A stretch of DNA of 64,000 nt, taken from assembly GCA_964390715.1 (NCBI GenBank), contig CAYMIM010000013.1:27311-91310 (forward strand). Reading direction: 5' to 3'. Position numbers and translations under genes: made by a program. Numbering within the stretch: position 1 is the first letter of the stretch; the number at the start of each line of letters is the position of its first letter. Below are positions 29,930 to 58,500 of this stretch, in pieces. The DNA is from Candidatus Woesearchaeota archaeon. GTDB lineage: Archaea; Nanobdellota; Nanobdellia; SCGC-AAA011-G17; UBA489. The notes beneath the pieces were generated by a model, which saw only the letters and a program-made list of their open reading frames with translations, ran no database searches and was not told where the DNA came from.

Positions 29930-30609
29930 GTTTTTATTTCACCTTTTTCCAAATACAAAATTCTATCGCTGAATTTTTTAACAGTAGCAATATCATGACT
30001 TACAAAAAGAATAGTCTTCTGTTGTTTTTTGAAATTTCTAAAGACTTCATAACATTTTTTCTGGAACACTTCATCTCCAACTGCTAAAACTTCATCCACT
30101 AAGAGAATGTCAGCATCAACTTGACTAGCTATCGAAAAGCCAAGACGAGCAACCATGCCTGAACTGAGATTTTTAAGTTTGGTATCAACAAATTTTCTAA
30201 GGTCAGAAAAGGAAATAATAGTGTCATATCGTCTCTCTATCTCTTGATGAGATAAGCCTAGCAAAGAACCATAGAGAAATATATTCTCTTTGACTGTTAA
30301 TTCTCCTTGAAATCCAACTCCTAATTCTAAAAAAGGACTTAAAGTGCCATGAACATGCACATAGCCTTGAGTAGGTTGTAATACTTTAGCAATAATTTTG
30401 AGAAAAGTGCTCTTGCCTGCTCCATTTGGACCAACAATACCAATAAATTCTCCCTTCTTGATGGATAAACTAACATCTTTCAAAGCATAAAAACGTTCAT
30501 AAGAATGGCTGAGATTAAAGAGACCTAGAATATAAGATTTAACCCCATACTTTTTATCGTGAGGAATGTTAAAAATTTTCGTAACATGCTCTAAAGAAAT
30601 AATATTCAT
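29920..30609 (-). CDS. ABC transporter ATP-binding protein, polysaccharide/O-antigen-type exporter (Wzt/KpsT/TagH-like)
   Basis: Walker A GIVGPNGAGKST, signature LSSGM, Walker B ILLVDE. Start overlaps the upstream methyltransferase. Confidence 0.8.
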   Translation of the reverse strand: MNIISLEHVTKIFNIPHDKKYGVKSYILGLFNLSHSYERFYALKDVSLSIKKGEFIGIVGPNGAGKSTFLKIIAKVLQPTQGYVHVHGTLSPFLELGVGFQGELTVKENIFLYGSLLGLSHQEIERRYDTIISFSDLRKFVDTKLKNLSSGMVARLGFSIASQVDADILLVDEVLAVGDEVFQKKCYEVFRNFKKQQKTILFVSHDIATVKKFSDRILYLEKGEIKTWK

Positions 30610-36338: not shown

Positions 36339-37565
36339 ATGAAATTCGCGCATACGTCAGATTGTCACGTCGGTGGTTGGCGTGAAGAAGAGATGAAGCA
36401 GTTGAGTTTGCTCTCGTTTCAGAAAATGATTGACCACTGTATAGAAGAACATGTCGGTTTTCTCTTGATTGCTGGTGACTTGTTCAACACATCAATACCG
36501 CAGATTGATCTCATCAAGGAAGTGGCGCATCAATTGAATCGTCTCAAAGAAGAAAACATTGAAGTCTATATCATCCCTGGAAGTCACGATTATTCTCCTT
36601 CGGGAAAAACCATGATCGACGTCTTGGAAAAAGCTGGCCTCTGTCATAACGTCTTCAAGTTCAAGAACAACAAGCTGGAGTTTACTGTCGACAAAACAAA
36701 TACGAAAATCACAGGAGTCATTGGTCTGGCGGGTGGTCTGGAAAAAAAACATTATCATGTACTTGACAAAACCAATTTGGAAGCGGAACAAGGGTTCAAG
36801 ATATTCATGTTTCACACATTGCTAAATGAGTTTCGTCCAAAAGATTTGGAGAAAGTAGATGGAGAGTCTTACACATTATTGCCCAAGGGGTTCAACTACT
36901 ATGCTGGCGGTCATCCGCACTTTGTTATGGAAAAGCGCGTCCCAGAATATGGCGTCATCACTTATCCAGGTCCATTAATGCCTAATAATTTCAAGGAAAT
37001 TGAGGAGCTCAAGCATGGCGGTTTCTACATTTGTGATGAAAAAATGATCCTTCGTCACATCCCGATCAAAATCAAAGACGTGCTCTCCTTAGTGATCAAT
37101 GCTGATAAGAAAACACCTTTAGAAGTGGAGCGAGAAATAGAAGAGCATATCAAAAAAAATGATCTCAAGGATAAAATTGTCACTTTACGAGTAGAGGGAA
37201 CGCTCAAGACAGGCAAGCCTGCGGATATTAATTTTTCAGAGTTAATAGACAGTATGAAGGAAGCATACTGCACGCTCAAAAACACATATAGTTTGACAAC
37301 GCAGGAATTCGAAGAGGTCAAAGCGGACACAGGTTCTGTAGAAGAGATTGAGGAAAAAATAATCCAAGAACATTTGGGGCAAATTCCTCTGGAGCAGATA
37401 AAAATAAAAGAGGGAGAGCTCACAAAAATAATGGTGTCGTTATTGAACAAAGAAAAGCATGAGGGGGAAAGGAAAGCGGACTTCGAAAGTCGCTTGATGA
37501 AAGAGGTGATAGAGATGCTGCAAATGAAAGAAGTTTGGGGTAACCATGCTGCTGAAGAAGATTAG
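36339..37565 (+). CDS. mre11: DNA double-strand break repair nuclease Mre11
   Basis: MKFAHTSDCHVGG (motif I), IAGDLFN (motif II), PGSHD (motif III), calcineurin-like phosphoesterase. Overlaps rad50. Confidence 0.8.
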   Translation: MKFAHTSDCHVGGWREEEMKQLSLLSFQKMIDHCIEEHVGFLLIAGDLFNTSIPQIDLIKEVAHQLNRLKEENIEVYIIPGSHDYSPSGKTMIDVLEKAGLCHNVFKFKNNKLEFTVDKTNTKITGVIGLAGGLEKKHYHVLDKTNLEAEQGFKIFMFHTLLNEFRPKDLEKVDGESYTLLPKGFNYYAGGHPHFVMEKRVPEYGVITYPGPLMPNNFKEIEELKHGGFYICDEKMILRHIPIKIKDVLSLVINADKKTPLEVEREIEEHIKKNDLKDKIVTLRVEGTLKTGKPADINFSELIDSMKEAYCTLKNTYSLTTQEFEEVKADTGSVEEIEEKIIQEHLGQIPLEQIKIKEGELTKIMVSLLNKEKHEGERKADFESRLMKEVIEMLQMKEVWGNHAAEED

Positions 37566-39600
37566 ATTGGAAAATATTCGCAGTTACATCGATGAGGAAA
37601 TCGAGTTTCCAACGGGAAGTATCTTGTTGTCGGGAAATATTGGGTGTGGTAAGTCTACAATTCTGCAAGCGATTGATTTTGCTCTGTTCGGTATCACGCA
37701 GGAATTAACTGGTAGTTCATTGTTGCGCAATGGAGAAGATCGTGGTGGTGTTGAATTGCATTTCGAGGTCGATAATAAAAATGTTGTCATCAAGCGAAGT
37801 TTAAAGCGTGGCACATCAGTCGTGCAGGATGCTGGCTATATCATAGTCAATAATGCCCGTCGTGAAGCGACTGCTACCGAGTTGAAGCAAAGCATTCTGA
37901 CATTGTTAAATTATCCAGAAGAGTTGCTCACCAAATCAAAATCACTCATCTACAGATACACCGTCTACACTCCTCAAGAGGAGATGAAGAGCATTCTCCA
38001 TGGTGACAAGGAACATCGTCTCGACACGTTAAGAAGAGTCTTTGGCATCGACAAATACAAGCGGTTAAAAGAAAACGCTGAGCTCGTTGTGGTCAGCATC
38101 AAGTCAAAAAATAAGGAAAACGCGATCATGATCGCGGATCTCGAGCAGAAAAAAACAGAACAGAATCAATTAAAGATGCAGTTAAAAAGTGTCAGGATAG
38201 TTATAGAAAGTATTTTGCCAAAATTAAGTGAGTACCATCTCTTGCTGGAAGACAAGAAGAAAAAAGTGGAGCTCATCAACAAGGAAATAAAAGAGCAGCA
38301 GGAAATAAAGAAAAAATTAGAAGTGTGTGAACTCTCCATAAGGCACAAGACAGAAGAAGCGGCGAGAAATCTGGCGCGAATTGGGGAGATAGTCGCAATC
38401 GTGAAGGACGCTGAGGTAGCGCTTGAGAAAGAAAAACCTCCTGCGGTAAGCAGAGAAAAAATCATGGTGAAAGAGAAAGAAATAATCACCAAGGAAGCGG
38501 AGATCAGGATACTGCTCAACAATATCCAGGAGAAAAAAACGCATAAGGCGCACGCGGAAAAAATAATGGGAGACATCACTAAGTTAGAAAATTGTCCTAT
38601 TTGTAAGCGAAAAGTAACCAAAGAGCATCAAGAGACAGTTACTAGAGAAGAGCGTCAGAAAATTATGCGGCACGAAGAAGAGATGCGGAAGATACAAAAG
38701 CAGGTCCTTGAGAAAGAAGAATTCATCAAGGCGGATAAGTTGCTGCTGGAACAAGATAAAAAAGCGGAACAGTTTATTGCGCTCTACGAACTCAAGAAAA
38801 GAAATATAGAAGAAAAGAAAAAAGAAACACTTCGTCTGCAGGAAATAAATACTATGCTCGCGAAAGAGAAAGAAATGCTAGAACTGCAAAGACAGCAGGT
38901 GCTCCAGCAGATAAAGAAAGATGGAGCAGAAGACGTGCACGAGCAACTACGGTTAGAAGTCGACGAGCTTCAAGAGCGCAAGAAGAAAGTTGAAATTGAG
39001 AAAGCGACCAATGAGCGTGAGGTAGAACATCTGGAGAAACAAATAAGCGCGCTCGAGACAGACATCAAAAAGAAAGAGAAAATACGTGATAACATAGGAT
39101 ACTTGAAAGAAGTGCAGTTCTGGCTGGAAAATATGTTCATGAACTTGATGAATACCATGGAGAAAAAAATCATGCTCAAGGTGCACTCAGACTTCTCCAC
39201 ATTCTTCAAGAAGTGGTTCGAGACTTTGGTGGATACTGAAGCGATCAAAGTGACTTTAGATGATGAATTCTCTCCTATCATCGAGCAGAACGGTCATGAA
39301 ATTAATTATAGCTATCTCAGTGGTGGTGAAAAAACTGCGGCTGCCCTGGCTTATCGTCTTGCGTTAAACCAAGTCATTAACTCCATCATGAGTATTATCA
39401 GGACCAAGGAGCTCATCATTCTTGACGAGCCGACCGATGGCTTCTCTTCAGAGCAAATCGACCGTCTCAGGCTCATTTTAGAGGAGTTAAAAACAAAGCA
39501 AATCATCATTGTTTCCCACGAGAACAAAATTGAGAGCTTCGTTCAGCATGTCATTAAAATAGAGAAGAATGACCACATCAGTGCCGTTGCTAGCCAGTAG
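37546..39600 (+). CDS. rad50: DNA double-strand break repair ATPase Rad50
   Basis: Walker A GNIGCGKST, long coiled coil with CPICKRKV zinc hook, LSGGEKT signature, IILDEPTDG D-loop. Confidence 0.85.
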   Translation: MLLKKIRLENIRSYIDEEIEFPTGSILLSGNIGCGKSTILQAIDFALFGITQELTGSSLLRNGEDRGGVELHFEVDNKNVVIKRSLKRGTSVVQDAGYIIVNNARREATATELKQSILTLLNYPEELLTKSKSLIYRYTVYTPQEEMKSILHGDKEHRLDTLRRVFGIDKYKRLKENAELVVVSIKSKNKENAIMIADLEQKKTEQNQLKMQLKSVRIVIESILPKLSEYHLLLEDKKKKVELINKEIKEQQEIKKKLEVCELSIRHKTEEAARNLARIGEIVAIVKDAEVALEKEKPPAVSREKIMVKEKEIITKEAEIRILLNNIQEKKTHKAHAEKIMGDITKLENCPICKRKVTKEHQETVTREERQKIMRHEEEMRKIQKQVLEKEEFIKADKLLLEQDKKAEQFIALYELKKRNIEEKKKETLRLQEINTMLAKEKEMLELQRQQVLQQIKKDGAEDVHEQLRLEVDELQERKKKVEIEKATNEREVEHLEKQISALETDIKKKEKIRDNIGYLKEVQFWLENMFMNLMNTMEKKIMLKVHSDFSTFFKKWFETLVDTEAIKVTLDDEFSPIIEQNGHEINYSYLSGGEKTAAALAYRLALNQVINSIMSIIRTKELIILDEPTDGFSSEQIDRLRLILEELKTKQIIIVSHENKIESFVQHVIKIEKNDHISAVASQ

Positions 39601-39657: not shown

Positions 39658-41067
39658 ATGAATGGAAAAAATGCGTCGTTCATCGTACTTATTGCCCTTC
39701 TGGTTATACCTCTCGTTTTTGCGAACCCTATTACTATTGTAGTAATGGAATCGCAAGACGAAGTGGAAGCGGGCAGCGTCGCGGAATTTACAGTAAAGAT
39801 AACCAATGATGGGTTAGATCGTGACGTCTTTAGCATCGAGCCGGACGAGTTTAATGTTTATCCCTTCTCTGACTTCGCTCAAAGAATTGAGGCTAAGCCG
39901 TCACAGGTAAAATTAGATGCTGGAGAAAGTGCTATCGTAAAAATTCTCATTAAAACCATTGATGTCACGCTACCAAATAAATATTATGATTCTAAAATCA
40001 TTGTCTCTTCAGTCATCCATCCAGAAAGTAAAGAGTCCATAATGCTCAAGACATATGTCGCGTCAGCGAAAAATATTATCGAGATTGTACCGCGGCTGGT
40101 GCAGCAAATCACGCCAGGAAAAGAAATTAATGTGCCCATCAAATTGAAGAATCGTTCTAGGTTAGTTATGGATCTTGAAGTTACTCTGGGTACTGACATT
40201 CCAAATATTGCCGAGCCTCTGCGCGTGAGCTTGCGGTCGCAAGAAGAAAAGCAAGTGGAAATGAAAATAAATGTTGATCCAACAGCGCTTCCAGGAGAGA
40301 GAAAGATAACTATTGCCGCTTATGAGAAAGATCAGCTTCGTGGCTCATTCATAACTGAGGTGTCCATCCTTCCAAAAGATCGTGTTGAAGAAGACAGAGA
40401 CGTAAAAAGAGGTTTCTTGTCATCCACGACAACTATCATTCGTGAAAATAAAGGAAATGTCGCTAGTGAGCAGCGAGTTGAGGCGAAATATAATATAATC
40501 CAGCGTATCTTTTCATCCATGACGCCAAAGCCAGAGACAGAGATAGGAAAAGTCATCTGGAAATTCACGTTACAGCCAGGAAGCAAGAAAACTATTGAGA
40601 TTTACAGCAATTACCGTCCTTTGCTCTATGGTATAATCGCGGTGATAATCTTTACAGCCATAGTGCTGTTCTCTATCGAGCGCAGCGTCGTCATCAAGAA
40701 GCGTACCTTCCGTGGAAAAGAAATGGTTGAGGGAGTAAAAGAATACAAGATTTTCATCTTGGTGCGTAATGGAAAGAAATATACTCTAAGCGATGTTAAA
40801 GTCATGGATCTCGTGCCCAACATATTGAATCTAACTTCTGATTTTGGATCATTGAGGCCTGACAGAGTGCAGCATAGTGATCGCGCGACGCGCTTGTTGT
40901 GGAATGTCATCAAGCTGGAGCCTCGTGAAGAGCGTGTCTTTTCCTACAAGATCCGCTTGAAGGACTCTATTGTCGGTGAAGTTGTTCTGCCTGTGGCTAT
41001 CATTCAGTTCGTAGACGCTAAGGACAAATTTGAGCAAGTCCAGTCCATGCGTGTTATTCTCGGATAA
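39658..41067 (+). CDS. Signal-peptide surface protein with beta-sandwich-like ectodomain, single C-terminal-proximal TM and about 130-aa cytoplasmic tail; function unknown
   Basis: MNGKNASFIVLIALLVIPLVFANP signal. TM YGIIAVIIFTAIVLFSI near residue 340. Confidence 0.5.
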   Translation: MNGKNASFIVLIALLVIPLVFANPITIVVMESQDEVEAGSVAEFTVKITNDGLDRDVFSIEPDEFNVYPFSDFAQRIEAKPSQVKLDAGESAIVKILIKTIDVTLPNKYYDSKIIVSSVIHPESKESIMLKTYVASAKNIIEIVPRLVQQITPGKEINVPIKLKNRSRLVMDLEVTLGTDIPNIAEPLRVSLRSQEEKQVEMKINVDPTALPGERKITIAAYEKDQLRGSFITEVSILPKDRVEEDRDVKRGFLSSTTTIIRENKGNVASEQRVEAKYNIIQRIFSSMTPKPETEIGKVIWKFTLQPGSKKTIEIYSNYRPLLYGIIAVIIFTAIVLFSIERSVVIKKRTFRGKEMVEGVKEYKIFILVRNGKKYTLSDVKVMDLVPNILNLTSDFGSLRPDRVQHSDRATRLLWNVIKLEPREERVFSYKIRLKDSIVGEVVLPVAIIQFVDAKDKFEQVQSMRVILG

Positions 41068-41084
41068 ACAGAGATAAACAATAT

Positions 41085-41094
41085 CTTTAAAAAC
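41085..41094 (+). promoter_or_regulatory. TATA-like box (CTTTAAAAAC) about 28 nt upstream of tRNA-Tyr
   Basis: Position consistent with an archaeal tRNA promoter. Confidence 0.3.
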
Positions 41095-41119
41095 GATAAA
41101 CAGGACTTAGAAAGAGCTT

Positions 41120-41242
41120 CTCCACGTAGCTCAATGGTAGAGCGGTCGGCTGTAGATGTCGTGAATCGAGATTCCACACGGAAACTGTGAAAATTCACTA
41201 GCCGATCCCGACAGGTTCCTGGTTCGAGTCCGGGCGTGGAGA
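41120..41242 (+). tRNA. tRNA-Tyr (anticodon GTA) with an approximately 51-nt intron 3' of the anticodon (about 41156..41206)
   Basis: Acceptor CTCCACG/CGTGGAG plus discriminator A. D-arm GCTC-AATGGTA-GAGC. Anticodon stem GTCGG/CCGAC interrupted after CTGTAG. T-arm CCTGG-TTCGAGT-CCGGG. Confidence 0.65.
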
Positions 41243-41243
41243 T

Positions 41244-43331
41244 TTATTTTTCTTTTAGAGGTGAATGTATTCGTCGTCGTGATCTAAGATAGAGAAATAG
41301 AATAAGGAAGAGAATCAGAATTATAAGCAAAAATACAAAGAGGAAACGAGGCTGCGAGTTATCTTGACGAACGGGTGGTGAAAATATGGGAGTTTTTGTT
41401 GTGTTCACTTTAGGGACAATTTTCTTAATACTAGTTTTACATTCAGTATCGCCATAAGGCGCGGCTTGGTTATCGGTGCCTCCATCGCAGTCATTATCTA
41501 ATCCATCATTGCACATATTTAATTCACTCGTACTATAGGAAGGATGATTGTTGCTGTAAGTCTCAATGGTACATCCAGGCCATTGTTCACGCGTGCAAGT
41601 TTCTTGTGATCCTGCGCACACGCCTCGTTGTTCTAGACACAGACGTTTTTCTCCATTTTCACAACTTTGCACAACAGTAATCTTAAGAGGTACAGAAGAA
41701 TCGCCAAAATGTTCCACGCCTTCATGAACCATTCTCCATTGGAAAGTATAAGTGCCTGAAGTTGCTGGCGCTGTGATCATAAAGGTGAAATTTTTCTCTC
41801 CATTTGTATTAACAACCTCACGAGAAGAGAAAGGAACGCGGTTTATTCCCCAAAGAAGAGTATCTTGTGGAGATTGAGAGCTGAGAAAATACTGTCGTGA
41901 TGCTTCCCAGGAAGTTGATCCCGTGTCTTTAAAGATCAATGAGACAGTGTATTGCTGACGAGCCTGCATGACAGAAGGCGCAGATTGTGAGATAAAGGTT
42001 GCGTCTTGGTCATAGAGAAGTGCTAGTCCGTCAGTGAGTAAACGAGTCATGCTATAAACATTGGAGTCATCTTCTGGAAGATTGATAGGGATTCTCTGAT
42101 TTCCTTGTGGATCAGTGTGCCAGCTCTGGAAAATGTGGTGATCCGCAATCAGGTCACGGTCTTTAAGGTAAGTAACCCATTGTAAGACGTTGTTGTAAAA
42201 TGATGCGTCCGTGCTTTCAAGAGTATCTCCCCAATAGATAATGCCAAAGGGAATATTTTTATTTGCGAAAAAAGTTTTTAGCTGCTGGATGTCAGGCGCG
42301 ACATCAACATTCCATGCTTTTGCGGTATTTCTGCTGACATCTAAATGATAAAAATCTAAAGTAATGCCTTGTCGCTCAAGTTCTAGTACCCAATCTATGT
42401 GTTGTTGTGCGCGAAAATAGGGTAGTGGCTCTACATCGCCTATTTTGATCGATGGATGAAGTGATTTTATAGTTGTGATATATTCCGCGACTTCCTGAGC
42501 TGATCTTTGTATGGTGTATTTACATGGTATTGCGGGACCGCCTGTCTGTACGCCTCTAAGGTATGAGGAGTCTAGAGCGATATAAGCGACTTCTCCTCCG
42601 CCTTGATAGATGTTATTCATCGCGTGTAGTGTTTGAGGTATGCCTGCTTCTGCTTCACATCCTAAGTTTCCATCAATAGCAATAGATTCCATGGCAATGT
42701 CAATATTCCATTGTTTAAGTTTTGAAAATGCTCCTGCTGCGAGAAGATTGATATAAGAAACATCTCCGCACGGCTTGCAATAGATAGAATCGGTATTTAG
42801 TATACTTTGTTGATAAAATGAAAAAACATCAATATTAGCTCTGGCATGTGGCCATTGGTCTTCTTTGGTAAAAAGATCCATATAGTCTTCAGTTCCAAAG
42901 TTGGGAGTAAACCAGATGTCTCTGCTCCGGCTGCGAGATGGCTTGCCTACACCGAAAGGATATGCGGGGGGGTAAGGAGAAGTTGCTAACAGTATGGTTA
43001 GGGGTAGCGCCAGGGTCTCATGGTTCTGATTAACTACGGCGATCATGTAAGTATGCTCTGGTATATTGGGGGGAAGGGTAAGAATGATAACGTTTGCAGA
43101 AATAGAAGGTTGAAACATGGATAAATCTGTGCTGAGAGCTCCATTGATTTTCAAGCCAATTAAAGTATCTAGATTTTCCCCTTGTAAAGTAATTTTTGTT
43201 CCAGGAACATTATAAGCCAGGGAAGGAGTAATGCTAGTTAGGGAAATTTCTTGTGCGTCTATAAGAGAAGGAAATATACAGACAAGGAGGAAAAGAAAAA
43301 AGAAGGAAAGTATAAATTGCTGGCGTCGCAT
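41244..43331 (-). CDS. Large secreted/surface protein with signal peptide, NBR1/CARDB-like beta-sandwich region, C-terminal TM and basic tail (possible sorting signal)
   Basis: Start placed at MRRQQFILSFFFLFLLVCIFPSLIDA (signal peptide). The track ORF begins 49 codons earlier and would overlap the desaturase gene. C-terminus ...PRFLFVFLLIILILFLILFLYLRSRRRI. Internal TYTFQWRMVHEGVEHFGD motif. Confidence 0.5.
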   Translation of the reverse strand: MRRQQFILSFFFLFLLVCIFPSLIDAQEISLTSITPSLAYNVPGTKITLQGENLDTLIGLKINGALSTDLSMFQPSISANVIILTLPPNIPEHTYMIAVVNQNHETLALPLTILLATSPYPPAYPFGVGKPSRSRSRDIWFTPNFGTEDYMDLFTKEDQWPHARANIDVFSFYQQSILNTDSIYCKPCGDVSYINLLAAGAFSKLKQWNIDIAMESIAIDGNLGCEAEAGIPQTLHAMNNIYQGGGEVAYIALDSSYLRGVQTGGPAIPCKYTIQRSAQEVAEYITTIKSLHPSIKIGDVEPLPYFRAQQHIDWVLELERQGITLDFYHLDVSRNTAKAWNVDVAPDIQQLKTFFANKNIPFGIIYWGDTLESTDASFYNNVLQWVTYLKDRDLIADHHIFQSWHTDPQGNQRIPINLPEDDSNVYSMTRLLTDGLALLYDQDATFISQSAPSVMQARQQYTVSLIFKDTGSTSWEASRQYFLSSQSPQDTLLWGINRVPFSSREVVNTNGEKNFTFMITAPATSGTYTFQWRMVHEGVEHFGDSSVPLKITVVQSCENGEKRLCLEQRGVCAGSQETCTREQWPGCTIETYSNNHPSYSTSELNMCNDGLDNDCDGGTDNQAAPYGDTECKTSIKKIVPKVNTTKTPIFSPPVRQDNSQPRFLFVFLLIILILFLILFLYLRSRRRIHSPLKEK

Positions 43332-43421
43332 AAAGAAATAGAGAAATCCAACATATAAAAACCCACCGATGAAGAGAAAAGAAATAGAAACAATTTTATA
43401 GAAGAACAAAGTATCAAAAAT

Positions 43422-44546
43422 ATGATAAAAATGAGGAATATTGATTGGGTGAACACAAGTTTCATTGTTTCTTATCACTTACTATTATTGAGTTTATTGC
43501 CGATATATCTTGTCTTTAACACACCAAGTCTAGGTTTAATAGTAGGAACAGTTATACTCAGCATACTTATCAGTTTCAGCGTTACTGCGGGGTACCATCG
43601 ATTATATGCGCATCGAGCTTACGATATCAACAAACTAGGAGAATTTTTTATTCTAGCGTTTGGCACATTAGCTATAGAGAATAGTGTTCTGCAATGGTCG
43701 CGTGATCATCGCATGCATCATCGGTATGTCGACACAGAAAAAGATCCTTATTCAATCAAGGAAGGATTTTGGCACGCGCATATGCTCTGGGTTTTAAAGA
43801 AAAATGATGAAAGAACAAGTGATTATAGTGTAGTTCCAGATCTACTTTCCGATAAAGCGGTTATGTTTCAGCACAAGTATTATGCTATATTGGTAATCCT
43901 CGGAAACTTGGCAGTCATTGGTTTATTCAGTTGGCTCTTCAAAGACTTGTTCGGAGTGATAGTAATAGCTTGTTTAGCTAGAGTGTTCCTAATCCATCAT
44001 ATGACATGGTTCATTAATTCCCTCGCGCACACGTTTGGTAGCAAGCCTTATTCAAACGAGCATTCTGCCGTAAACAATGCTGTAATCGCTTTTTTAACAT
44101 TTGGAGAAGGATATCACAATTATCACCACACATTCCCGTCTGATTATAGAAACGGAGTTCGATGGTATCAATTTGATCCAACAAAAATAGTTATCTGGTC
44201 TTTAGCAAAAATAGGAATCGCGAAAAATCTAAAGAAAATTGAATTGCCTTTGATCAAAAAGAGAATGATCGTGGAAGATGAAAGAAAAATTTTAGAAAAA
44301 ATAAGAGCTGGCAGTCAGAAAAAATGGAAAGAGATGGAAGCAAGAGTAAAAAATACCGCGGAAAGTCTCACAACAAAACTTTCACAAGCATATACATTAT
44401 GGTTACAATATAAAACAGGAAAAACAAAGCAAGAAAAAATGGAAAGAAAACTACAGCTCAAAGTATTGAAAAAAAGCATTAGACAAGAGTATAAAATGTG
44501 GTTGCTCTTATGTAATCAAGTGATCATAGGAAAATCATCTCGATAA
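43422..44546 (+). CDS. Membrane fatty acid desaturase, stearoyl-CoA (delta-9 acyl-CoA/acyl-lipid) desaturase family
   Basis: Three His boxes: HRLYAHRAY, HRMHHRYVDTEKDPYS, HNYHHTFP, with four TM segments. Textbook SCD-family arrangement. Confidence 0.8.
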   Translation: MIKMRNIDWVNTSFIVSYHLLLLSLLPIYLVFNTPSLGLIVGTVILSILISFSVTAGYHRLYAHRAYDINKLGEFFILAFGTLAIENSVLQWSRDHRMHHRYVDTEKDPYSIKEGFWHAHMLWVLKKNDERTSDYSVVPDLLSDKAVMFQHKYYAILVILGNLAVIGLFSWLFKDLFGVIVIACLARVFLIHHMTWFINSLAHTFGSKPYSNEHSAVNNAVIAFLTFGEGYHNYHHTFPSDYRNGVRWYQFDPTKIVIWSLAKIGIAKNLKKIELPLIKKRMIVEDERKILEKIRAGSQKKWKEMEARVKNTAESLTTKLSQAYTLWLQYKTGKTKQEKMERKLQLKVLKKSIRQEYKMWLLLCNQVIIGKSSR

Positions 44547-44814
44547 TACCAATTCGAAAATATACTTTTTCTCTACAGTAATATTTAAAAGCAAGTTCAT
44601 ACATCAAAAAGAGGTGTTGAGTAAGAGAAAAGAGGTTGAATAGAGTTCTCACTAGACCCGAAAGTTTTATATACCCCCCTTTGACCCAATTTTCTAGATG
44701 GAGCAATCGTTCTGTGCTGAGGCCTACAAAGATGACGGTAAAAGAGTTGTAATCCACTGTTTTCCACTATCTAGATAGTACTAGCAAGAACACATCACCA
44801 TCCCAAAAAGACGT

Positions 44815-44919
44815 GCCCTAGTAGTCTAGTGGCTATGATACGGCCCTGTCGTGGGCGCTCAAGATCAAAATCTGGCCCAGAGAAAGGCCGTGGCGCGGGT
44901 TCGATTCCCGCCTGGGGCG
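44815..44919 (+). tRNA. tRNA, probably Asp (anticodon GTC), with an approximately 33-nt intron or non-canonical insertion
   Basis: Acceptor GCCCTAG/CTGGGGC (one G-U) plus discriminator G. T-arm GCGGG-TTCGATT-CCCGC. Anticodon stem CGGCC(44841..44845)/GGCCG(44886..44890) with loop CTGTCG then intron. D-arm imperfect. Confidence 0.5.
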
Positions 44920-44923
44920 TTTT

Positions 44924-45017
44924 GGGCCGGTAGCTCAGCCTGGCTAGAGCACTTGGCTTTTAAACAAGCCAAAGCAAAGACACCAAGGGGTCGGGGGTTC
45001 AAATCCCCTCCGGTCCG
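44924..45017 (+). tRNA. tRNA-Lys (anticodon TTT) with an approximately 19-nt intron at 37/38 (about 44963..44981)
   Basis: Acceptor GGGCCGG/CCGGTCC plus G. D-arm GCTC-AGCCTGGCTA-GAGC. Anticodon stem CTTGG/CCAAG with loop CTTTTA[intron]A. T-arm GGGGG-TTCAAAT-CCCCT. Confidence 0.6.
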
Positions 45018-45033
45018 TTATACTCAACACAAA

Positions 45034-45276
45034 ATGCCGAAAACCATCAAAATCCAAGACCATATCTTGGTGCCAAAACATGTGCTCCTCACTAAGGAAG
45101 AGGCTCAAGTTTTATGGCAGAAATATAACATTACACCTTCTCAAATGCCTATGATTTCAGGAAAAGATCCTGCTATAAAAAATCTGAACGCGGAAACCGG
45201 TGATGTCATCAAGATTATTCGCAATTCTCCTACAGAAAAAGAAGCTTTATTTTACCGTGTAGTAAAGGCGGACTAA
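45034..45276 (+). CDS. rpoH: DNA-directed RNA polymerase subunit H (Rpb5 homolog)
   Basis: MPKTIKIQDHILVPKHVLLTKEEAQVLWQKYNITPSQMPMISGKDPAIKNL...GDVIKIIRNSPT matches RpoH. The track's longer ORF (44851) reads through the tRNA genes and is spurious upstream of this ATG. Confidence 0.85.
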   Translation: MPKTIKIQDHILVPKHVLLTKEEAQVLWQKYNITPSQMPMISGKDPAIKNLNAETGDVIKIIRNSPTEKEALFYRVVKAD

Positions 45277-45279
45277 AGT

Positions 45280-46761
45280 ATGAACAAAAAGCTCATCATC
45301 AAAAAATATTTTGAGGAGAATTCATTCGTAGAGTCTAACATCCGTTCCTTCAACAACTTCATCGAGAAGGACATTCATAAAATCATCCAAGAAATCGGCG
45401 ATGTTGTCCCAACCATCATACCGCAAGATATGCAGGATTTCCGCATCAAGCTCGACAAAATTAATATCACCAAGCCACAGCTCATAGAGGCGGATGGTAG
45501 CAGACGAGATATTTATCCCATGGAAGCTCGTCTCAGAAAAATTTCCTATGCCGCTCCTATCAATATGGAAATTTCAGCGCATATCGATGGGGTCCAAAGA
45601 GAATCATTCACTACACAAATTGGATTGTTGCCAGTCATGCTCAAAAGTAAATACTGTCATCTCCATGGCATGAAAGAAGAAGAATTAATCAAGCATGGTG
45701 AAGATCCTAATGATCACGGTGGATATTTCATTCTCAACGGTAATGAGCGAGTGTTAATGACGGTTGAAGATCTAGCCGCGAACATGATGTTCGTCGAGGA
45801 AAATAAAATAGGTACTAGTAGGTACACCGCCAAAATATTCTCCGAGCGTGGCTCCTATCGTGTTCCTCATGTCATCGAGCAAGCCAAAGACGGATTGATT
45901 TACTTGTCCTTCACGAGATTCAAGAAAATACCTGTTGTTGCGGTAATCAAGGCTTTAGGCTTAATGAAGGATAGTGAAATCGTGCAAGCTATCTCCCAAG
46001 ACCGTGAATTCGATGATATTTTCATTAATTTGTTCAACTCCGCGGACTTGAAGAATGAGGCTGATGCTCTAGATTTCATCTCAAAAAAAATAGGTATGTC
46101 TCCCTTGCAAGAGCAGCGTCTGGAAAAAACACAGGATAATCTCGACAAGTATTTATTGCCACATTTAGGTATTGAGCCAAAGGATCGTAAGTACAAAGCC
46201 ATCAATCTCTGTAAGTTATTGCGCAGATTCCTCATTGTTTCCAAAGAAGAGATCAAGAACCAAGACAAAGATCATTACATGAACAAGCGTCTCAAATTAA
46301 GTGGTGACTTGTTGTCTGATTTATTCCGTGTACAACTTCGTGCTTTGGTCAATGACATTATGTACAACTTCCAGCGTTTAGTCAAGCGGGGAAAATTCCA
46401 CTCTATCAAGATTATCATTCGTGATAAATTATTGACATCCAGAATCAACAGCGCTATGGCGACTGGTGTCTGGGTCGGTGGTCGTAAAGGACTAAGCCAG
46501 AATATGGACCGAACAAATTTCCTGGCGGCGACATCGCATTTGCAAAGAGTAGTTTCCTTACTGTCAGCGACGCAGGAAAACTTCGCTGCTCGTGCGCTGC
46601 ACGCGACTCATTGGGGTCGTCTCTGCGCGATCGAAACGCCAGAAGGTACATCCATTGGATTGAGAAAGAATTTGGCGTTATTGGCGGAAATCACACAAGA
46701 AGAAGTTCCTGATGCAAAGCTCAAGAAATCATTAGAAGAACTAGGAATGAAAGCGGTATGA
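45280..46761 (+). CDS. rpoB2: DNA-directed RNA polymerase subunit B'' (N-terminal half of split RpoB)
   Basis: 493 aa, conserved Rpb2 N-terminal regions. Follows rpoH and overlaps rpoB' by 4 nt. Confidence 0.85.
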   Translation: MNKKLIIKKYFEENSFVESNIRSFNNFIEKDIHKIIQEIGDVVPTIIPQDMQDFRIKLDKINITKPQLIEADGSRRDIYPMEARLRKISYAAPINMEISAHIDGVQRESFTTQIGLLPVMLKSKYCHLHGMKEEELIKHGEDPNDHGGYFILNGNERVLMTVEDLAANMMFVEENKIGTSRYTAKIFSERGSYRVPHVIEQAKDGLIYLSFTRFKKIPVVAVIKALGLMKDSEIVQAISQDREFDDIFINLFNSADLKNEADALDFISKKIGMSPLQEQRLEKTQDNLDKYLLPHLGIEPKDRKYKAINLCKLLRRFLIVSKEEIKNQDKDHYMNKRLKLSGDLLSDLFRVQLRALVNDIMYNFQRLVKRGKFHSIKIIIRDKLLTSRINSAMATGVWVGGRKGLSQNMDRTNFLAATSHLQRVVSLLSATQENFAARALHATHWGRLCAIETPEGTSIGLRKNLALLAEITQEEVPDAKLKKSLEELGMKAV

Positions 46762-51151: not shown

Positions 51152-53755
51152 ATGGAAGACCAAATCTACAAGGACTACGAAGGAAAGCTGCCGAAGAAAG
51201 TTATCGAAGAGATAAGGCTAGAAGCGAAAGAACGAAATCTTAGCAAAGACCAGCTCAAGAAAGTGCTCGAGTACTTGAAAGAAGAATATGACGCCGCGAA
51301 AATAAACCCTGGTGAAGCTATTGGTATTCTCACAGCGGAATCATTCGGTGAGCCAGGTACGCAGATGTCCATAGCGAAAGAAGAAAAGATTCTAGTCAAG
51401 ATAAAGAACAATATCAAAATTGTAGAAATTGGCAGTCTCATTGATCGTATTATGAGGACAAAGGGGTCGTTAAAACTCCATGAACATTCAGAAGTAACAC
51501 CTATGCACGATCTTGATATAAGTGTGATAAGTATTACTCCAGAAGAAAAAATAGAATGGAAAAAGGTAGTAGAGTGTAGTCGACATCTCTGTGAAAAAAA
51601 ATTGCTCAAGATCACAACAGCGTCAGGCAGAACCATTACTGCGACAGATAATCATTCATTTGTTACAAGAAGAAACAATACTGTCGTCCCGATTCTAGGA
51701 AGCCAGTTAATATGTGGCATGCGCATTCCTGTGATCAATCACATGCCACTAGAGCGAGAGAGAATAACAAAGATCGATCTGAAAGAATTTTTAGAAGAGG
51801 AGTACATCACAGAGAACAGTCAGGGATTGTTGGAGACAGCGTACCATGCGAAGCCAATCCCAAGGTATCTTGAGCTTACAGAGGAATTAGGATGGTTCAT
51901 AGGAGCGTACCTCGCGGAAGGCGCGGCGTCTACGGGTCAAGTCATGATTTCGAATATGAATAACAACTATATAGCGAATGCGGCTAGTTTCACAACAAGC
52001 ATAGGGTTAGATTACAAAGAAGATCTACATCACAGAGGATTTAGTAATTCTCGAGATCTTAAGATATCCTCAAGTTTGCTTGCGAGATTTATCGGAAGAT
52101 CGTGTGGTCAAGGAGCAAGCGGAAAGAAAGTGCCTGAATTTGCTTATAACGCTCCCGATGAATTTATCCATGGTCTACTGCGAGGATACTTTGACGGCGA
52201 TGGTAACTTCCAGGTGGAGAGAAAAATGATAAGAAGTTCTTCAAACTCCAAGCAGTTGTCGGATAATATAGCGTTGCTCTTAGCGCGAAAAAATATATTT
52301 TCCTATAAAACAACAGATAAAAAAGGTCAGCATTGGCTGTTGATCCCGTACAAATATGCTCCTCTTTATTTGGAGTATATTGGTTCTGACATCGACTATA
52401 AAGAAAAAGATTTACAAACGTTGGCGGAGAAAGCGAAGAGATTTTGGAATGTGCGTAGTCAGGATTATACCGACATGATAAGTGGCTTCGACGACTTATT
52501 TGTAAAGGCTGCGAAAAAAATTAATCTTCCAACACGATATGTGAATAGCTGTACCAAACGACAAAAAATAGGAAGAACAGCGCTTTTCAGATACATCAAG
52601 AAATTCGAGGAAAAGGCGAAAGAACTGCGAGTAGATCTTAGCGAAGAGCTCACGATAATGCGAAGAATGTTCCATGCGGACGTTATTTGGGACGAGATTG
52701 AAAGCATAGAACAGACAGATAGCGAAGAGTATGTGTATGACCTCTCTGTTCCGGGGCTAGAGACATTCACAACCGCGGAAGGCATAGTAGTGCATAATAC
52801 ATTAAACGTGTTCCACTTCGCTGGTGTAGCTGAAGTATCCGTTACCCAAGGATTACCTCGTCTTATTGAAATCTTAGACGCTCGCAAGGAAATCTCCACG
52901 CCATCCATGGAAATCTTCCTCAAGAAAAGTATCAACAAAGACATGCTGGAAGTAAAGCGTGTCGCTGCTCTGATCAAAGAGACAAAGCTGAATGAAATCG
53001 CGACAGAATTTTCTATTGACTTGAACAAGTTACAAGTGGAAGTCCAGTTAAACCAGCATCGCCTGAAAGATCTCAAATTGAAGCCAGATCAAGTTGCTGA
53101 AGCGCTCAACGCGAATATGAAGGGCGTAAAAGCGAGCGTCAGTGGTGAAAAAATCGTTATAAAAACAAAAGCGGAAGAAAATGAGTTGATGGAAACCTAC
53201 AAGATCAAGGAAAAGGCGAAGGAAGTCTTCATCAAAGGTGTTAAAGGAATCAAGCAGGTGTTGCCAGTAAAGAATGGTGAAGAGTATGTTATCATCACAG
53301 CGGGTTCCAACTTAAAAGATGTCATTGAAGTCGAGGAAGTAGATGAAACACGGACAACCACCAACAGCTTATTCGAAGTTCTAAAAGTGTTTGGTGTCGA
53401 AGCTGGTCGTCAAAATATCATCAAAGAAGCGCAAAAAGTCATTGAAGATCAAGGTCTTGATGTGGATGTTCGTCACATTATGTTCATCGCGGATGCCATG
53501 ACTACCTCAGGCACCATTAAAGGTATCACGCGTTCAGGTATCACTGGGGAGAAAAAATCCGTTTTGGCTCGCGCGAGCTTCGAGACTCCTTTGAAGCATT
53601 TGATCAACGCGTCAGTCATTGGTGAAGAAGATGACTTAAACTCTGTTATCGAAAATGTCATGCTCAATCAGCCAGTGCCATTAGGTACAGGTCTTCCAGA
53701 CTTGGTCACAAGAATTAAAAAAGACACAATCTCTGGAAAGGAAGGAAAGAAATGA
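51152..53755 (+). CDS. rpoA2: DNA-directed RNA polymerase subunit A'' interrupted by a 477-aa intein
   Basis: Exteins SFGEPGTQM / TLNVFHFAGVAEVSVTQGLPRLIEILDA are contiguous A'' sequence. 867 aa against about 390 aa for an intein-free A''. Confidence 0.85.
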   Translation: MEDQIYKDYEGKLPKKVIEEIRLEAKERNLSKDQLKKVLEYLKEEYDAAKINPGEAIGILTAESFGEPGTQMSIAKEEKILVKIKNNIKIVEIGSLIDRIMRTKGSLKLHEHSEVTPMHDLDISVISITPEEKIEWKKVVECSRHLCEKKLLKITTASGRTITATDNHSFVTRRNNTVVPILGSQLICGMRIPVINHMPLERERITKIDLKEFLEEEYITENSQGLLETAYHAKPIPRYLELTEELGWFIGAYLAEGAASTGQVMISNMNNNYIANAASFTTSIGLDYKEDLHHRGFSNSRDLKISSSLLARFIGRSCGQGASGKKVPEFAYNAPDEFIHGLLRGYFDGDGNFQVERKMIRSSSNSKQLSDNIALLLARKNIFSYKTTDKKGQHWLLIPYKYAPLYLEYIGSDIDYKEKDLQTLAEKAKRFWNVRSQDYTDMISGFDDLFVKAAKKINLPTRYVNSCTKRQKIGRTALFRYIKKFEEKAKELRVDLSEELTIMRRMFHADVIWDEIESIEQTDSEEYVYDLSVPGLETFTTAEGIVVHNTLNVFHFAGVAEVSVTQGLPRLIEILDARKEISTPSMEIFLKKSINKDMLEVKRVAALIKETKLNEIATEFSIDLNKLQVEVQLNQHRLKDLKLKPDQVAEALNANMKGVKASVSGEKIVIKTKAEENELMETYKIKEKAKEVFIKGVKGIKQVLPVKNGEEYVIITAGSNLKDVIEVEEVDETRTTTNSLFEVLKVFGVEAGRQNIIKEAQKVIEDQGLDVDVRHIMFIADAMTTSGTIKGITRSGITGEKKSVLARASFETPLKHLINASVIGEEDDLNSVIENVMLNQPVPLGTGLPDLVTRIKKDTISGKEGKK
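51368..52798 (+). mobile_element. Intein with LAGLIDADG homing endonuclease domain inserted in rpoA'' (Ser1 ... His-Asn, +1 Thr)
   Basis: Begins SIAKEEKIL and ends EGIVVHN, followed by T. LAGLIDADG-like motifs LGWFIGAYLAEGAAS and LRGYFDGDGNF. Confidence 0.8.
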
Positions 53756-55539: not shown

Positions 55540-58500
55540 ATGCCACCATCTGACGCAGCAAATGAAATCATGGAGCTTGCTAAAGTACCAGCCCACATTA
55601 GAAATATTTGTACTTCTGCGCACATTCATCACGGAAAATGCATTGATGGTAAAAGTAGACTTATTCTAGCAAATGGTGAGATTAAAACTGCCGAGCAAAT
55701 CTATCAACTAGCGGAACAAAAAGGGCAGAAGTTTGAAGAGAAAGAAGAACATACTATCTACGACATTTCAAAAGAAAACATCACTATTTTTTCCTTAAAT
55801 CAAGCTACAGGTCAATTAGAAAAGAAAAATGTAAGCTTGGCATGGAAATTGAAAGGTGGTCAGGTTATCAAAATAAAACTAAGAAATGGTTTTGATATCA
55901 CAAGCACTCCAGAACACAAGTATATAGTGTTTAAAAATATGCAGTTTGTAGAGAAAATTGCTGGAGAATTGCGATTAGGTGACAATATAGTCTGCGCAAG
56001 AAAAACGAATGTTGATGCAAATATAGATCTAAAAAAGGAAATGCTTGAGCTATTAAGAAATAAAAACTTCTATGTTTGTCTAAAAGAAGACTTTGTTGCA
56101 CAATTAAAACAAAAGATATTTGCATATGGCACAGAAAAATTAGTAAAAGAAATAAACTCGCCAATCAAGCCTAAATCATTCTACCATGGTATTTGGCAAA
56201 AAAGAATATTGTTAAACGATCTACTTAATGCATGTAAAATATTCGATATAACTGAAATTTACGATAAAATAGAAACCATCGTCTATAGAACAGGAAAACA
56301 ACGAGGCCATAACTCATTACCTATAAAATTGCCGCAGAATTTTGCAAATTTCTTCTATTTAGCTGGATTATTTACTGGTGATGGCTCTTCTAAGCGGTTT
56401 ATTGTAGGCAAAGAAGAACTAAGAAAAGAATTTATCAGTATATGTCAAGAGATAGGCTGTAATGCTACAGAAAAGAACGACAAAGGAAAAACACCTGCTC
56501 TTGAAACCAATAAAACTCTGCTTCATATGCTTAATACAATCTTTGACTATCCATTAAAACAAAAGAGTCATAATGTTAAAATTTCAACTTTTGTCTGGAA
56601 AAGTCCAAAAGAGCTTATTGGAAAATTCCTTAAAGGTTACTTTGACACTGATGGCACGGTAGAGTTATCTAGAGGTGCTATTTCAATTTATTCAGCTAGC
56701 AAACAAATGATGAAAGATCTGCCGTTACTTTTGTTACGCTTTGGGATTGTTCCTATTGTCAATAACGATAACATATACATTAGTGGATTTTCAGTAGAGC
56801 AATATAATAAACAAATTGGATTCAATGTCAAACACAAAGAACAACGAGCAAAAGCATTAGCAACAAATGCTATAGGTAGCTATGTAACTGACTGGATTAA
56901 TCTCACAACAGAAACAAGAGTAAGTAAACACAATACACAAAAATTAGTACAATTGGGTCTCAAAGAACAAGTGCAAAATAAATTCTTCAACGATGATTTA
57001 GTATACATTCAAGTCACAGGCATTGAAGAAGGGTATGAAGAAACAGTTTATGATTTCACAGTTCCAGACAATCATACCTTTATAGCCGAAGGCATTGTCA
57101 TGCATAATACGGCGCTCACAGACAACCTCCTTGCGGCTTCCGGTCACATAAGCTCTAAGGCGGCAGGCGACTTGGACAAAGGTATGGCGACTTGGCAGCA
57201 CGCTGATGAGCAAGAGCGTTTGATGACTGTCGATGCGGCTAATGTATCCATGATCCACACGTTTGAGAATACTAAATATCTTATCAACTTGATCGACACG
57301 CCAGGACACGTTGACTTCGGAGGTAACGTCACTCGTGCCATGAGAGCCATTGACGGAACTATTGTGTTAATTTGCGCGGTAGAAGGGATCATGCCGCAGA
57401 CAGAAACTGTCGTTCGTCAAGCCATTCGTGAACGCGTCAAGCCAGTCCTCTTCATCAACAAAGTCGATCGCTTGATCAACGAATTAAAATTCACGCCTGA
57501 GCAAATGCAGGAGCGTTTCTTGAAATTAATCACGGAGTTCAACACCTTAATCGAGAACACCGCTGAAGATGAGTACAAACAAAAATGGAAAGTAGACATT
57601 CTTAATGGCAGTGTCGCTTTTGGTTCTGCTCGTGAGAACTGGGCTTTATCTATTCCTTACATGAAGAATAAAAATGTTTCTTTCAAGGATATTGTCAATC
57701 TCTACAAAGAGGACGTGACTGAGGAGAATCGCCAAAAATGGATCTGGGAAAAGGCTCCCGTCTTTGAAGTCATTCTCGACATGGTCATCAAGCACTTGCC
57801 CAACCCTTTGGAAGCGCAAAAATATCGTATTCCGCACATTTGGCATGGAGATTTAGAGACGCAATTCGGTAAAGATTTATTAGTGGGAAATCCTAATGGA
57901 AAAATAGCGTTCGTCATCACGCGTATCACTATCGATCCAAGATTTGGTCGTGAATTATGCGCGGGTCGTTTATTTTCTGGCACAGTCAGAGCTGGGCAAA
58001 CAGTCTGGTTGAACAACGCGAAATCAACGCAAAGAATCGCTCAAGTCTTTATGTATAAAGGTATCAAGCCTGAATCTTTAGACTCTGTTTCCGCGGGAAA
58101 TGTCCTGGCCTTAGGCGGTATTTCTGGTATGGCTGGTGAAACTATTACTGAGGGACCAGAGCAGCCATTCGAGGAATTAAAGCACATTTTCGAGCCGGTC
58201 ATCACCAAATCTATCGAACCACTTAAGCCACAAGACTTGCCAAAGCTCGTGGAAGTTTTGAAGAAAGTATTGAAAGAAGATCCCTCTATCAAGATTGATA
58301 TCAACCAGGAAACGGGTGAAAATTTGATCCATGGTATGGGTGAATTGCACCTAGAGATTATTGAGAATCGTATCAAGACAGAAAAAGGATTGGACATTAA
58401 AACGTCTCCTCCTATTGTAGTCTATCGTGAATCAATGCAAAAGCCTGGTCAGGAAATGGAAGGAAAATCTCCCAATAAGCACAACAAATTCTATATTGTC

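Follow-up and report, generated by a model that had tools for sequence, protein, structure and literature searches.

A putative fatty-acyl desaturase of bacterial type at a conserved chromosomal site in a lineage of DPANN archaea

Archaea build their membranes from isoprenoid ethers, whereas Bacteria and Eukarya use fatty-acyl esters, and this "lipid divide" is central to ideas on early cell evolution and eukaryogenesis. What, then, does a gene for a fatty-acyl desaturase do in an archaeal genome? The question is raised by an open reading frame (ORF) at positions 43422 to 44546 of the Woesearchaeota stretch studied here (64,000 nt, hereafter "the window", meaning the whole stretch of DNA that was analyzed). 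The original prediction read this ORF as a membrane desaturase of the stearoyl-CoA desaturase (SCD) family, lying between tRNA genes at a typical island location and either acquired horizontally or kept to use scavenged fatty acids. Our analysis suggests that the ORF is likely to encode a functional SCD-family desaturase of bacterial type, anciently acquired from Bacteria, kept at a fixed site and acting on fatty-acyl lipids. The lineage very probably handles fatty-acyl chains despite the normally isoprenoid membranes of archaea, because the gene has been kept for a long time, is under selection and is part of the chromosome rather than of a recent island.

The assignment of the ORF to the SCD-type (Delta9-like) membrane desaturases is far beyond chance. 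Its features are the following.

43394..43400 (+): TTTTATA, a candidate archaeal TATA box ~25 nt 5' of the first ATG (direct sequence reading)
43422..44546 (+): desaturase coding sequence, 374 amino acids (aa), a membrane diiron acyl desaturase of the SCD fold (ORF, Pfam, phmmer match to SCD1, AlphaFold2, Foldseek)
43455..43595 (+): first transmembrane (TM) hairpin, TM1-TM2, aa ~12-58 (hydropathy; AlphaFold2 helices 9-32 and 37-63)
43596..43613 (+): His box 1, H59-RLYA-H64 (HRxxxH; HX4H) (translation, homologue alignments)
43707..43721 (+): His box 2, H96-RM-H99-H100 (HRxHH; HX2HH) (translation, homologue alignments)
43875..44015 (+): second TM hairpin, TM3-TM4, aa ~152-198, including T195 and W196 (hydropathy; AlphaFold2 helices 154-173 and 176-205)
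44016..44030 (+): N199-SLA-H203, the ninth His ligand and an Asn at the end of TM4, the extra motif of SCD type (translation, alignment to SCD1 NSAAH)
44115..44129 (+): His box 3, H232-NY-H235-H236 (HNxHH; HX2HH) (translation, homologue alignments)
44244..44528 (+): C-terminal extension of three long helices, aa 275-369, Lys-rich, containing W360 (AlphaFold2, predicted local distance difference test [pLDDT] 84-98)

The Pfam family PF00487 (FA_desaturase) matched the 374-aa ORF with 80.1 bits (gathering score 29.7; 3e-22). Translation from the second in-frame ATG, at 43431, gives a 371-aa product that is 100% identical to the database entry P0001. When the protein was compared with the sequences of the PDB using phmmer, mouse and human SCD1 were the sole matches (4ymk and 4zyo, E 6.5e-43 and 8.8e-43), and the motifs of the archaeal protein fell on HRLWSH, HRAHH, NSAAH and HNYHH of SCD1. 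The candidate TATA element would fit a leaderless or near-leaderless desaturase mRNA, judging from its spacing.

The set of metal ligands is complete. In SCD1, nine His residues coordinate the diiron center, with five binding Fe1 and the other four Fe2 (PMC10359943). All nine equivalents in the window protein (H59, H64, H96, H99, H100, H203, H232, H235 and H236), together with N199, are invariant both in 62 homologues and in a larger set of 157 aligned sequences. Two of the three residues of the kink in the acyl tunnel are retained as well. In human SCD1, the hydrogen-bonded triad Q147-W153-T261 has been proposed to kink the tunnel at C9-C10 (PMC8533217). W92, just before His box 2, corresponds to W153 and is invariant in the 157 sequences; T195 corresponds to T261, is invariant outside the clade of the window protein and is kept in seven of the nine clade members; and W196, in the second TM hairpin, is the equivalent of human W262 and is kept in the conservation alignment. 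Across columns conserved in 85% or more of the other 148 sequences, the clade shows just four minor clade-specific substitutions. Nothing in this comparison points to a change of substrate.

Structure prediction leads to the same family. An AlphaFold2 model built on the 62 homologues reached a mean pLDDT of 90.3 and a predicted TM-score (pTM) of 0.87, and its two hairpins reproduce the 2+2 arrangement of SCD, with four TM helices and a cytoplasmic cap. Searched against the PDB with Foldseek, the model matched SCD1 chains alone (target-normalized TM-score 0.77-0.82, root-mean-square deviation 2.8 A over ~282 columns), and all entries other than SCD1 had E>0.6. Thus, the three His boxes and the TM layout that the original prediction had read from the sequence are borne out by Pfam, phmmer, AlphaFold2, Foldseek and the invariant ligands. 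With SCD1 it has in common the fold (~29-30% identity, E~1e-43), four TM helices, the nine-His diiron site with its Asn, and, at the kink of the tunnel, the Trp and the Thr. The archaeal protein differs from SCD1 by its ~95-aa three-helix C-terminal extension, by a Glu in place of the Gln of the kink, by a much shorter N-terminal cytosolic region, by its archaeal host, and by the lack of an evident cytochrome b5 or b5 reductase.

The C-terminal extension is common to the bacterial subfamily discussed below (the homologues cover 97-99% of the protein) and absent from SCD1, and Foldseek found no counterpart for it in the PDB. W360, which lies in the extension, is invariant in the alignment of 62 homologues. 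Longer and more distant homologues are fusions of eukaryote type, which carry a cytochrome b5 domain C-terminal to the desaturase core. A motif scan revealed no heme-binding HPGG motif in the extension of the archaeal protein. We also considered such "Rosetta-stone" fusions as a guide to the redox partner, but the long homologues are b5 fusions of eukaryote type and are uninformative for the archaeal protein.

The host of this gene is a DPANN archaeon that is Nanoarchaeia/Woesearchaeota-like. Profile annotation of the window identified the archaeal markers RpoH, split RpoB''/RpoB', RpoA'/RpoA'', FttA/aCPSF1, S28e, L7Ae and a proteasome subunit, and further RNase J, Mre11-Rad50, EF-2 and EF-1α. 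In a scan of GTDB species representatives, the desaturase of 'Candidatus Nanoarchaeia archaeon SMAG_U8152', the closest named genome, was 76% identical; those of a 'Candidatus Woesearchaeota archaeon' and of a 'Nanoarchaeota archaeon' followed with 54% and 46%, respectively. The NCBI taxonomy places Ca. Nanoarchaeia within Nanobdellota, i.e., within DPANN, and the NCBI pipeline labels the 76% identical orthologue (HLC72189.1) 'fatty acid desaturase'. The archaeal nature of the genome, which the original prediction had asserted, is thus supported by these markers and by the intron-bearing tRNAs of the locus.

We then compared the surroundings of the gene with those in four related genomes (L002, L005, L006 and L007), each represented by a long contig (82-218 kb); these contigs stem from separate assemblies of ENA, JGI and NCBI/Logan. 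The landmarks of the locus in the window are listed here.

36339-37565: Mre11, 408 aa, upstream of the desaturase (Pfam annotation)
37546-39600: Rad50, 684 aa, directly after Mre11 (Pfam annotation)
39658..41067 (+): 469-aa secreted or membrane protein, the upstream syntenic anchor (ORF; orthologues of 462-471 aa in L002, L005, L006 and L007)
41120..41242 (+): tRNA-Tyr(GTA) with a 51-nt intron, the upstream landmark (Rfam, 54 bits; ARAGORN)
41244..43478 (-): surface protein, 744-aa ORF, likely start at Met 43333 (ORF, hydrophobicity, Pfam)
44815..44919 (+): intron-bearing tRNA, most likely Asp(GTC) (Rfam, 51 bits; anticodon loop CTGTCG read by hand)
44923..45018 (+): tRNA-Lys(TTT), intron-bearing (Rfam, ARAGORN)
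45034..45276 (+): rpoH, first gene of the RNA polymerase operon, the downstream anchor (Pfam RNA_pol_Rpb5_C, 1e-27)

The five genomes share the order Mre11 - Rad50 - ~470-aa protein - tRNA-Tyr - desaturase - two tRNAs - rpoH. The conserved block continues downstream with rpoB'' - rpoB' - rpoA' - rpoA'', and an ABC transporter and RNase J precede Mre11. The tRNA-Tyr(GTA) with its 51-nt intron was found 5' of the desaturase in L002, L005 and L006, and as a diverged copy in L007; the pair formed by the intron-bearing tRNA and tRNA-Lys(TTT) lies 3' of the gene in all four relatives (Rfam and ARAGORN). Because the desaturase occupies the same site in four related genomes from independent assemblies, it belongs to the conserved chromosomal backbone, and the notion of an island fits the neighboring surface protein at most.

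In contrast to this fixed position, the cargo beside tRNA-Tyr varies. L002 has radical-SAM and helix-turn-helix genes there, L006 has a HEPN gene plus a gene for a 190-aa product, and the window has the 744-aa surface protein, on the opposite strand; L005 and L007 have none. The surface protein was not found at the corresponding site in any of the four relatives. It is lineage-specific at the tRNA-Tyr site and has no part in the function of the desaturase. The Met at 43333 opens a segment resembling a signal peptide (MRRQQFILSFFFLFLL...), and a hydrophobic TM anchor lies at the C-terminus; the weak matches to TIG, Ig-like and Cys-rich MopE-like domains were all below the Pfam gathering cut-offs. 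Initiation of the surface ORF at its first GTG would be needed for it to overlap the start of the desaturase (by 57 nt), and a start at Met 43333 leaves a divergent intergenic region of 88 nt.

All three tRNAs that flank the desaturase contain introns (Rfam, ARAGORN). The tRNA at 44815-44919 is Asp(GTC) if its intron lies at the canonical position 37/38; the alternative given by ARAGORN is Ser(AGA), yet the long variable arm is lacking. The anticodon that ARAGORN assigns to this middle tRNA shifts between loci (Ser or Tyr) with the placement of the intron. The ~470-aa protein, for its part, always follows Mre11-Rad50 in the five genomes and presents a signal-like N-terminal segment and a TM segment without any confident Pfam domain; it occupies the slot where many archaea would have HerA/NurA.

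The desaturase is under strong purifying selection. Using the Nei-Gojobori method, we obtained ratios of nonsynonymous to synonymous substitution rates (dN/dS) of 0.16 between the window and L002 (dS 0.94) and of 0.14 between L005 and L007. Other pairs ranged from 0.04 to 0.14, and the pair window/L005 was too saturated at synonymous sites for a ratio. The pattern of identity among the desaturases is roughly congruent with those of Mre11, Rad50, the ~470-aa protein and the Rpo subunits: the window and L002 form the closest pair, as do L005 and L007.

The gene is likely to have a bacterial origin. The family is large, and its members are overwhelmingly from bacteria or eukaryotes; a search yielded 9,677 cluster representatives (50% identity) with E<=1e-3, of which 808 had E<=1e-30. 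In GTDB, with one genome per species, 77 of the 80 closest loci were bacterial and three archaeal, and all three of the latter were DPANN. The bacterial loci (37-50% identity) belong to Parachlamydiaceae, Simkaniaceae, other Chlamydiae, Verrucomicrobiae/Opitutales, one member of Ca. Komeilibacteria from the candidate phyla radiation (CPR), Acinetobacter and Burkholderiales. The nearest non-archaeal desaturases, those of Chlamydiae, Verrucomicrobia and the CPR bacterium, are ~40-48% identical. In a neighbor-joining (NJ) tree built from 370 columns of 159 aligned sequences and bootstrapped 100 times, the window protein and its syntenic relatives formed a clade with 100% bootstrap amid bacterial and unlabelled sequences. 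We looked for a broad archaeal clade of isoprenoid-modifying enzymes around the desaturase and found none. The most economical scenario is that the lineage obtained the gene from Bacteria long ago and then passed it down vertically. Horizontal acquisition, as first proposed, thus agrees with the small archaeal share among the closest loci (three of 80). Viruses were considered as the vector and rejected, as the homologues on IMG/VR viral contigs are at most 41% identical and no closer than those of bacteria.

The closest non-archaeal relatives include host-dependent lipid scavengers, namely Ca. Komeilibacteria (L024) and Chlamydiae (L011, L012, L018, L020-L022 and L034), beside free-living Verrucomicrobia. 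The presence of relatives in reduced, host-dependent groups hints at lipid remodelling shared by reduced symbionts.

The other DPANN-labelled sequences (L008, L010 and L015) fell into separate small groups of the NJ tree among unlabelled and bacterial sequences. L010, from another Woesearchaeota lineage, lies on a 756-kb contig where the desaturase is flanked by a gene for a small cupredoxin-like protein (plastocyanin/azurin or multicopper-oxidase-like; 5018-5542, minus strand) and by an ABC transporter of MacB/FtsX type with two permeases and an ATPase (7123-11090, minus strand); a gene for the large subunit of ribonucleotide reductase is nearby. This neighborhood may reflect chemistry involving O2 or redox reactions, or else the export of lipids or lipoproteins. 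Its arrangement is unlike that of the clade of the window, and we did not use it as evidence.

What might the enzyme act on, and how might it be supplied with electrons? The gene stands alone in all five archaeal genomes and in the single bacterial context that we viewed (Parachlamydiaceae). No gene for a reductase, cytochrome b5, ferredoxin or flavodoxin adjoins it in the window or the relatives. When signatures of ferredoxin, rubredoxin, flavodoxin and b5 were sought across the entire window, just false matches emerged, in RpoA' and in a Cys-rich surface protein. The cytochrome b5 and b5 reductase expected of a strict acyl-CoA desaturase are neither fused to the enzyme nor encoded next to it, in the window as in the relatives. 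Pseudomonas aeruginosa has two such enzymes: the stand-alone DesA, whose substrate is 16:0 bound to phospholipids, and DesB, which uses acyl-CoA and depends on an oxidoreductase, DesC, that is co-transcribed with it (PMC10634369). With DesA, a Delta9 enzyme of the phospholipid sn-2 position, the archaeal desaturase shares a stand-alone gene and the same Pfam family, and it is likewise predicted to be membrane-bound and O2-dependent. It differs from the DesB/DesC system in that neither a desC-like nor a desT-like neighbor is present in any of the five archaeal genomes, where tRNAs, Mre11, Rad50, rpo genes and the variable cargo are found instead. Since it is stand-alone, its organization is closer to DesA than to DesB, and the head-group of its substrate may be CoA or a glycerolipid. 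The protein is not an equivalog of DesA, as its sole NCBIfam match, to the DesA-family equivalog NF049918, scored 85.1 bits against a cut-off of 400.

The bacterial stand-alone Delta9 subfamily (Parachlamydiaceae, Simkaniaceae, Verrucomicrobiae/Opitutales, Ca. Komeilibacteria and Acinetobacter) is among the closest known systems, at 38-48% identity over 97-99% of the length and with the same C-terminal helical extension and invariant W360. The archaeal group is set apart from it by its host and by the 100% bootstrap of its clade. To our knowledge, none of these close bacterial homologues has been biochemically characterized.

A plausible scheme for the activity can be proposed from the properties of the family. 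An ancestor of this archaeal lineage would have taken the gene from Bacteria and passed it on vertically. The enzyme would sit in the cytoplasmic membrane, where its diiron center would activate O2 and two hydrogens would be taken from a saturated C16/C18 acyl chain held in the kinked tunnel, yielding a cis-monoene, most probably Delta9. The reaction of SCD1 type uses O2 and two reducing equivalents per turnover (PMC10359943). In the archaeon, the two electrons would come from a soluble donor encoded elsewhere; ferredoxin appears the likeliest, although this is a guess by analogy with Bacillus Des, which is described as receiving electrons from ferredoxin or flavodoxin (PMC9825965). The role of the enzyme would be to raise the unsaturation of fatty-acyl lipids, either scavenged from partners or made with the bacterial-type genes that have been reported in Woesearchaeota, and desaturation would proceed only while O2 is available. 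Cyclopropane-fatty-acid synthases use cis-unsaturated acyl chains as their substrate, and the desaturase would supply such chains to a synthase of this kind when O2 is present.

The bacterial-type lipid genes in question include a bacterial glycerol-3-phosphate (G3P) dehydrogenase and fatty-acid synthesis genes near a bacterial methylerythritol phosphate (MEP) pathway in Woesearchaeota (PMC8204110), FabG/FabI/FabZ and a cyclopropane-fatty-acid synthase in Woesearchaeota (PMC10936187), and PlsC/PlsY/GpsA sporadically in DPANN (PMC6431249). A fatty-acyl desaturase is therefore less unexpected in this archaeon than was first stated: the surprise holds with respect to the canonical isoprenoid membranes, but it is lessened by these reports (PMC8204110, PMC10936187, PMC6431249). 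The desaturase resembles the reported set (G3P dehydrogenase, PlsC/PlsY, FabG/FabI/FabZ, cyclopropane-fatty-acid synthase and MEP genes) as a bacterial lipid gene whose closest matches outside DPANN are bacterial, and differs from it in requiring O2 and in holding a conserved place in the core genome beside the rpo operon. Our literature searches found no paper naming a desaturase in DPANN or Woesearchaeota.

Several observations weigh against a fatty-acyl desaturase of ancient bacterial origin. DPANN archaea are mostly described as fermentative dwellers of low-oxygen habitats, whereas the desaturase needs O2. Pfam annotation of the 64-kb window revealed no fatty-acid metabolism genes: acyl-CoA synthetase, acyltransferase, Fab genes, acyl carrier protein and redox carriers are all lacking there, and the lipid-related annotation is limited to a cis-prenyltransferase (10699-11409). 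A methyltransferase (28587-29285) was considered as a cyclopropane synthase, but its CMAS match is weak and partial and the gene lies inside a glycosylation cluster, so we did not read it as such. The desaturase is also the fastest-evolving gene of the syntenic block: its pairwise identity across the five genomes is 57-76%, compared with 94-97% for RpoB'', 90-94% for RpoB' and RpoA' (90-97% for RpoB as a whole), 88-93% for Mre11, 70-85% for Rad50 and 65-87% for the ~470-aa protein. Its GC content at third codon positions (GC3) is 0.33, as opposed to 0.41-0.51 in the neighboring genes. In the window protein, the Gln of the kink triad is replaced by Glu86; Gln is present in five of the nine clade members and in 134 of the 148 other sequences. 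With regard to the head-group, alignment gives K126, K127 and D95 as the equivalents of human R188, K189 and D156, and the position of human R155 is variable across the subfamily (F/H/S/Y). In the SCD1 structures of 2015, these residues, including R155, are reported to contact CoA; CoA binding of SCD1 type is not assured for the archaeal protein. Finally, the backbone of the NJ tree has bootstraps below 25%, so that the phylogenetic placement settles the clade of the window (100%) but fixes neither a donor lineage nor the number of transfers into DPANN.

Fatty-acyl desaturation nevertheless remains the reading that we favor, and the alternatives fare less well. The first holds that the host is a mostly anaerobic fermenter in which the desaturase serves mainly as a sink that consumes O2 or balances redox carriers, with lipid unsaturation as a secondary effect. 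Each turnover consumes O2 and two reducing equivalents (PMC10359943), DPANN are generally described as fermentative and devoid of respiratory chains (PMC6349945, PMC9938205), and a cupredoxin-like gene adjoins the desaturase in the other Woesearchaeota lineage described above. However, such a sink would still require an acyl substrate and is thus no true alternative to fatty-acyl desaturation; moreover, unless Fe2+ is added, SCD1 loses its activity within about nine turnovers (PMC10359943) and would hence remove little O2 in bulk. We consider this possibility improbable.

It is also conceivable that the enzyme was re-purposed for isoprenoid chains, giving for instance unsaturated archaeol, or for another lipid that is not fatty-acyl. 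In favor of this idea, isoprenoid ethers are the canonical lipids of an archaeal host, fatty-acid genes are lacking in the window, and the sequence of the desaturase changes rapidly within its clade. In addition, the FA_desaturase superfamily is generally known to include carotenoid ketolases/hydroxylases and alkane hydroxylases. The protein itself shows no signature of such a change: the differences at conserved columns are limited to the four minor ones, W92, T195, W196, N199 and all His ligands are kept, and identity to ordinary bacterial members reaches 45-48% over the full length. The SCD tunnel is shaped for an unbranched chain (PMC8533217), and bacterial-type fatty-acid genes, including the cyclopropane-fatty-acid synthase, have been reported in Woesearchaeota (PMC10936187, PMC8204110). 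We give little credence to a re-purposed enzyme and retain a fatty-acyl substrate as the likely one.

The original prediction had considered the locus a typical island location, and a recent island would imply that a mobile element inserted the desaturase and the surface protein together at tRNA-Tyr. Some of the observations behind this idea stand: Rfam, ARAGORN and the reading of ORFs agree that the two genes lie between tRNA-Tyr and tRNA-Asp/Lys, the GC3 of the desaturase (0.33) is below the 0.41-0.51 of its neighbors, and the stretch beside tRNA-Tyr differs among the relatives. The desaturase itself does not behave as cargo. Each of the five related genomes has it at the corresponding position, the identities among its copies roughly parallel those of the flanking core genes, and its dN/dS is 0.1-0.16. 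A smaller GC3 deficit is found in each syntenic relative, and since it recurs, the deficit is a property of the desaturase gene and not a mark of recent arrival. The window annotation contains no integrase or recombinase gene, as the original prediction had noted for integrases, and no direct repeat of the 3' end of tRNA-Tyr (41200-41242), or other att-like repeat, was detected within 40900-45300. Homologues on viral contigs, as mentioned, do not exceed 41% identity. A recent island carrying the desaturase is therefore very unlikely, and the claim of an island location does not hold for this gene, although it may apply to the surface protein alone.

The last alternative, a bacterial gene misjoined to an archaeal contig by assembly or binning, could be invoked because the closest homologues outside DPANN are bacterial and the genomes of the relatives are metagenome-assembled, but its probability is negligible given that a single contig joins the desaturase to intron-bearing archaeal tRNAs and the archaeal RNA polymerase operon and that identical junctions occur in independent ENA, JGI, NCBI and Logan assemblies.

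An intact and selected desaturase gene fixed beside the RNA polymerase operon constitutes stronger evidence for fatty-acyl use in some DPANN archaea than scattered and possibly decaying fragments. It extends the known picture of bacterial Fab, Pls, G3P dehydrogenase and cyclopropane-synthase genes in Woesearchaeota, to which it adds an O2 requirement, strong purifying selection and a conserved position in the core genome. The need for O2 would also imply that these supposedly anaerobic fermenters regularly meet oxygen. We suggest more tentatively, and as a possibility we would sooner doubt than expect, that this DPANN lineage keeps fatty-acyl chains, taken from bacterial or eukaryotic partners or made with laterally acquired genes, as a regular part of its own membrane and tunes their unsaturation when O2 is present. 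If true, an archaeon found in nature would have a membrane that is mixed or in part of bacterial type, together with a homeoviscous response that depends on O2. The desaturase offers a simple experimental handle on these questions: an expressible gene with an identifiable product.

Other parts of the window deserve mention. A block at 22555-31364 has a low GC content (0.31-0.35) and GC3 (0.19-0.31) relative to ~0.41 and 0.45 elsewhere. It encodes a bacterial sugar transferase, two GT2 and one GT1-like glycosyltransferases, two methyltransferases and an ABC-2 exporter, and is a candidate for a laterally acquired cluster of surface-glycan genes. At 952-3068 on the minus strand, a gene for a SMODS-associated NUDIX-domain protein (952-1617) lies beside one for an APH-like protein of kinase fold (1614-3068); both have a GC3 of 0.20-0.22 and may form a defense-type pair.

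Two core genes of the window are interrupted by inteins. In EF-2 (55540-59217, plus strand, 1225 aa), aa 66-523 correspond to an intein plus LAGLIDADG domain; EF-2 of the relatives is 933 aa long and also matches Intein_splicing, probably owing to a smaller intein at the same site. RpoA'' (51152-53755, plus strand, 867 aa) contains an Intein_splicing domain at aa 124-549 with a LAGLIDADG_3 homing endonuclease at aa 338-394. RpoA'' is free of inteins (388-396 aa) in L002, L005, L006 and L007, which indicates a lineage-specific gain of this intein in the window.

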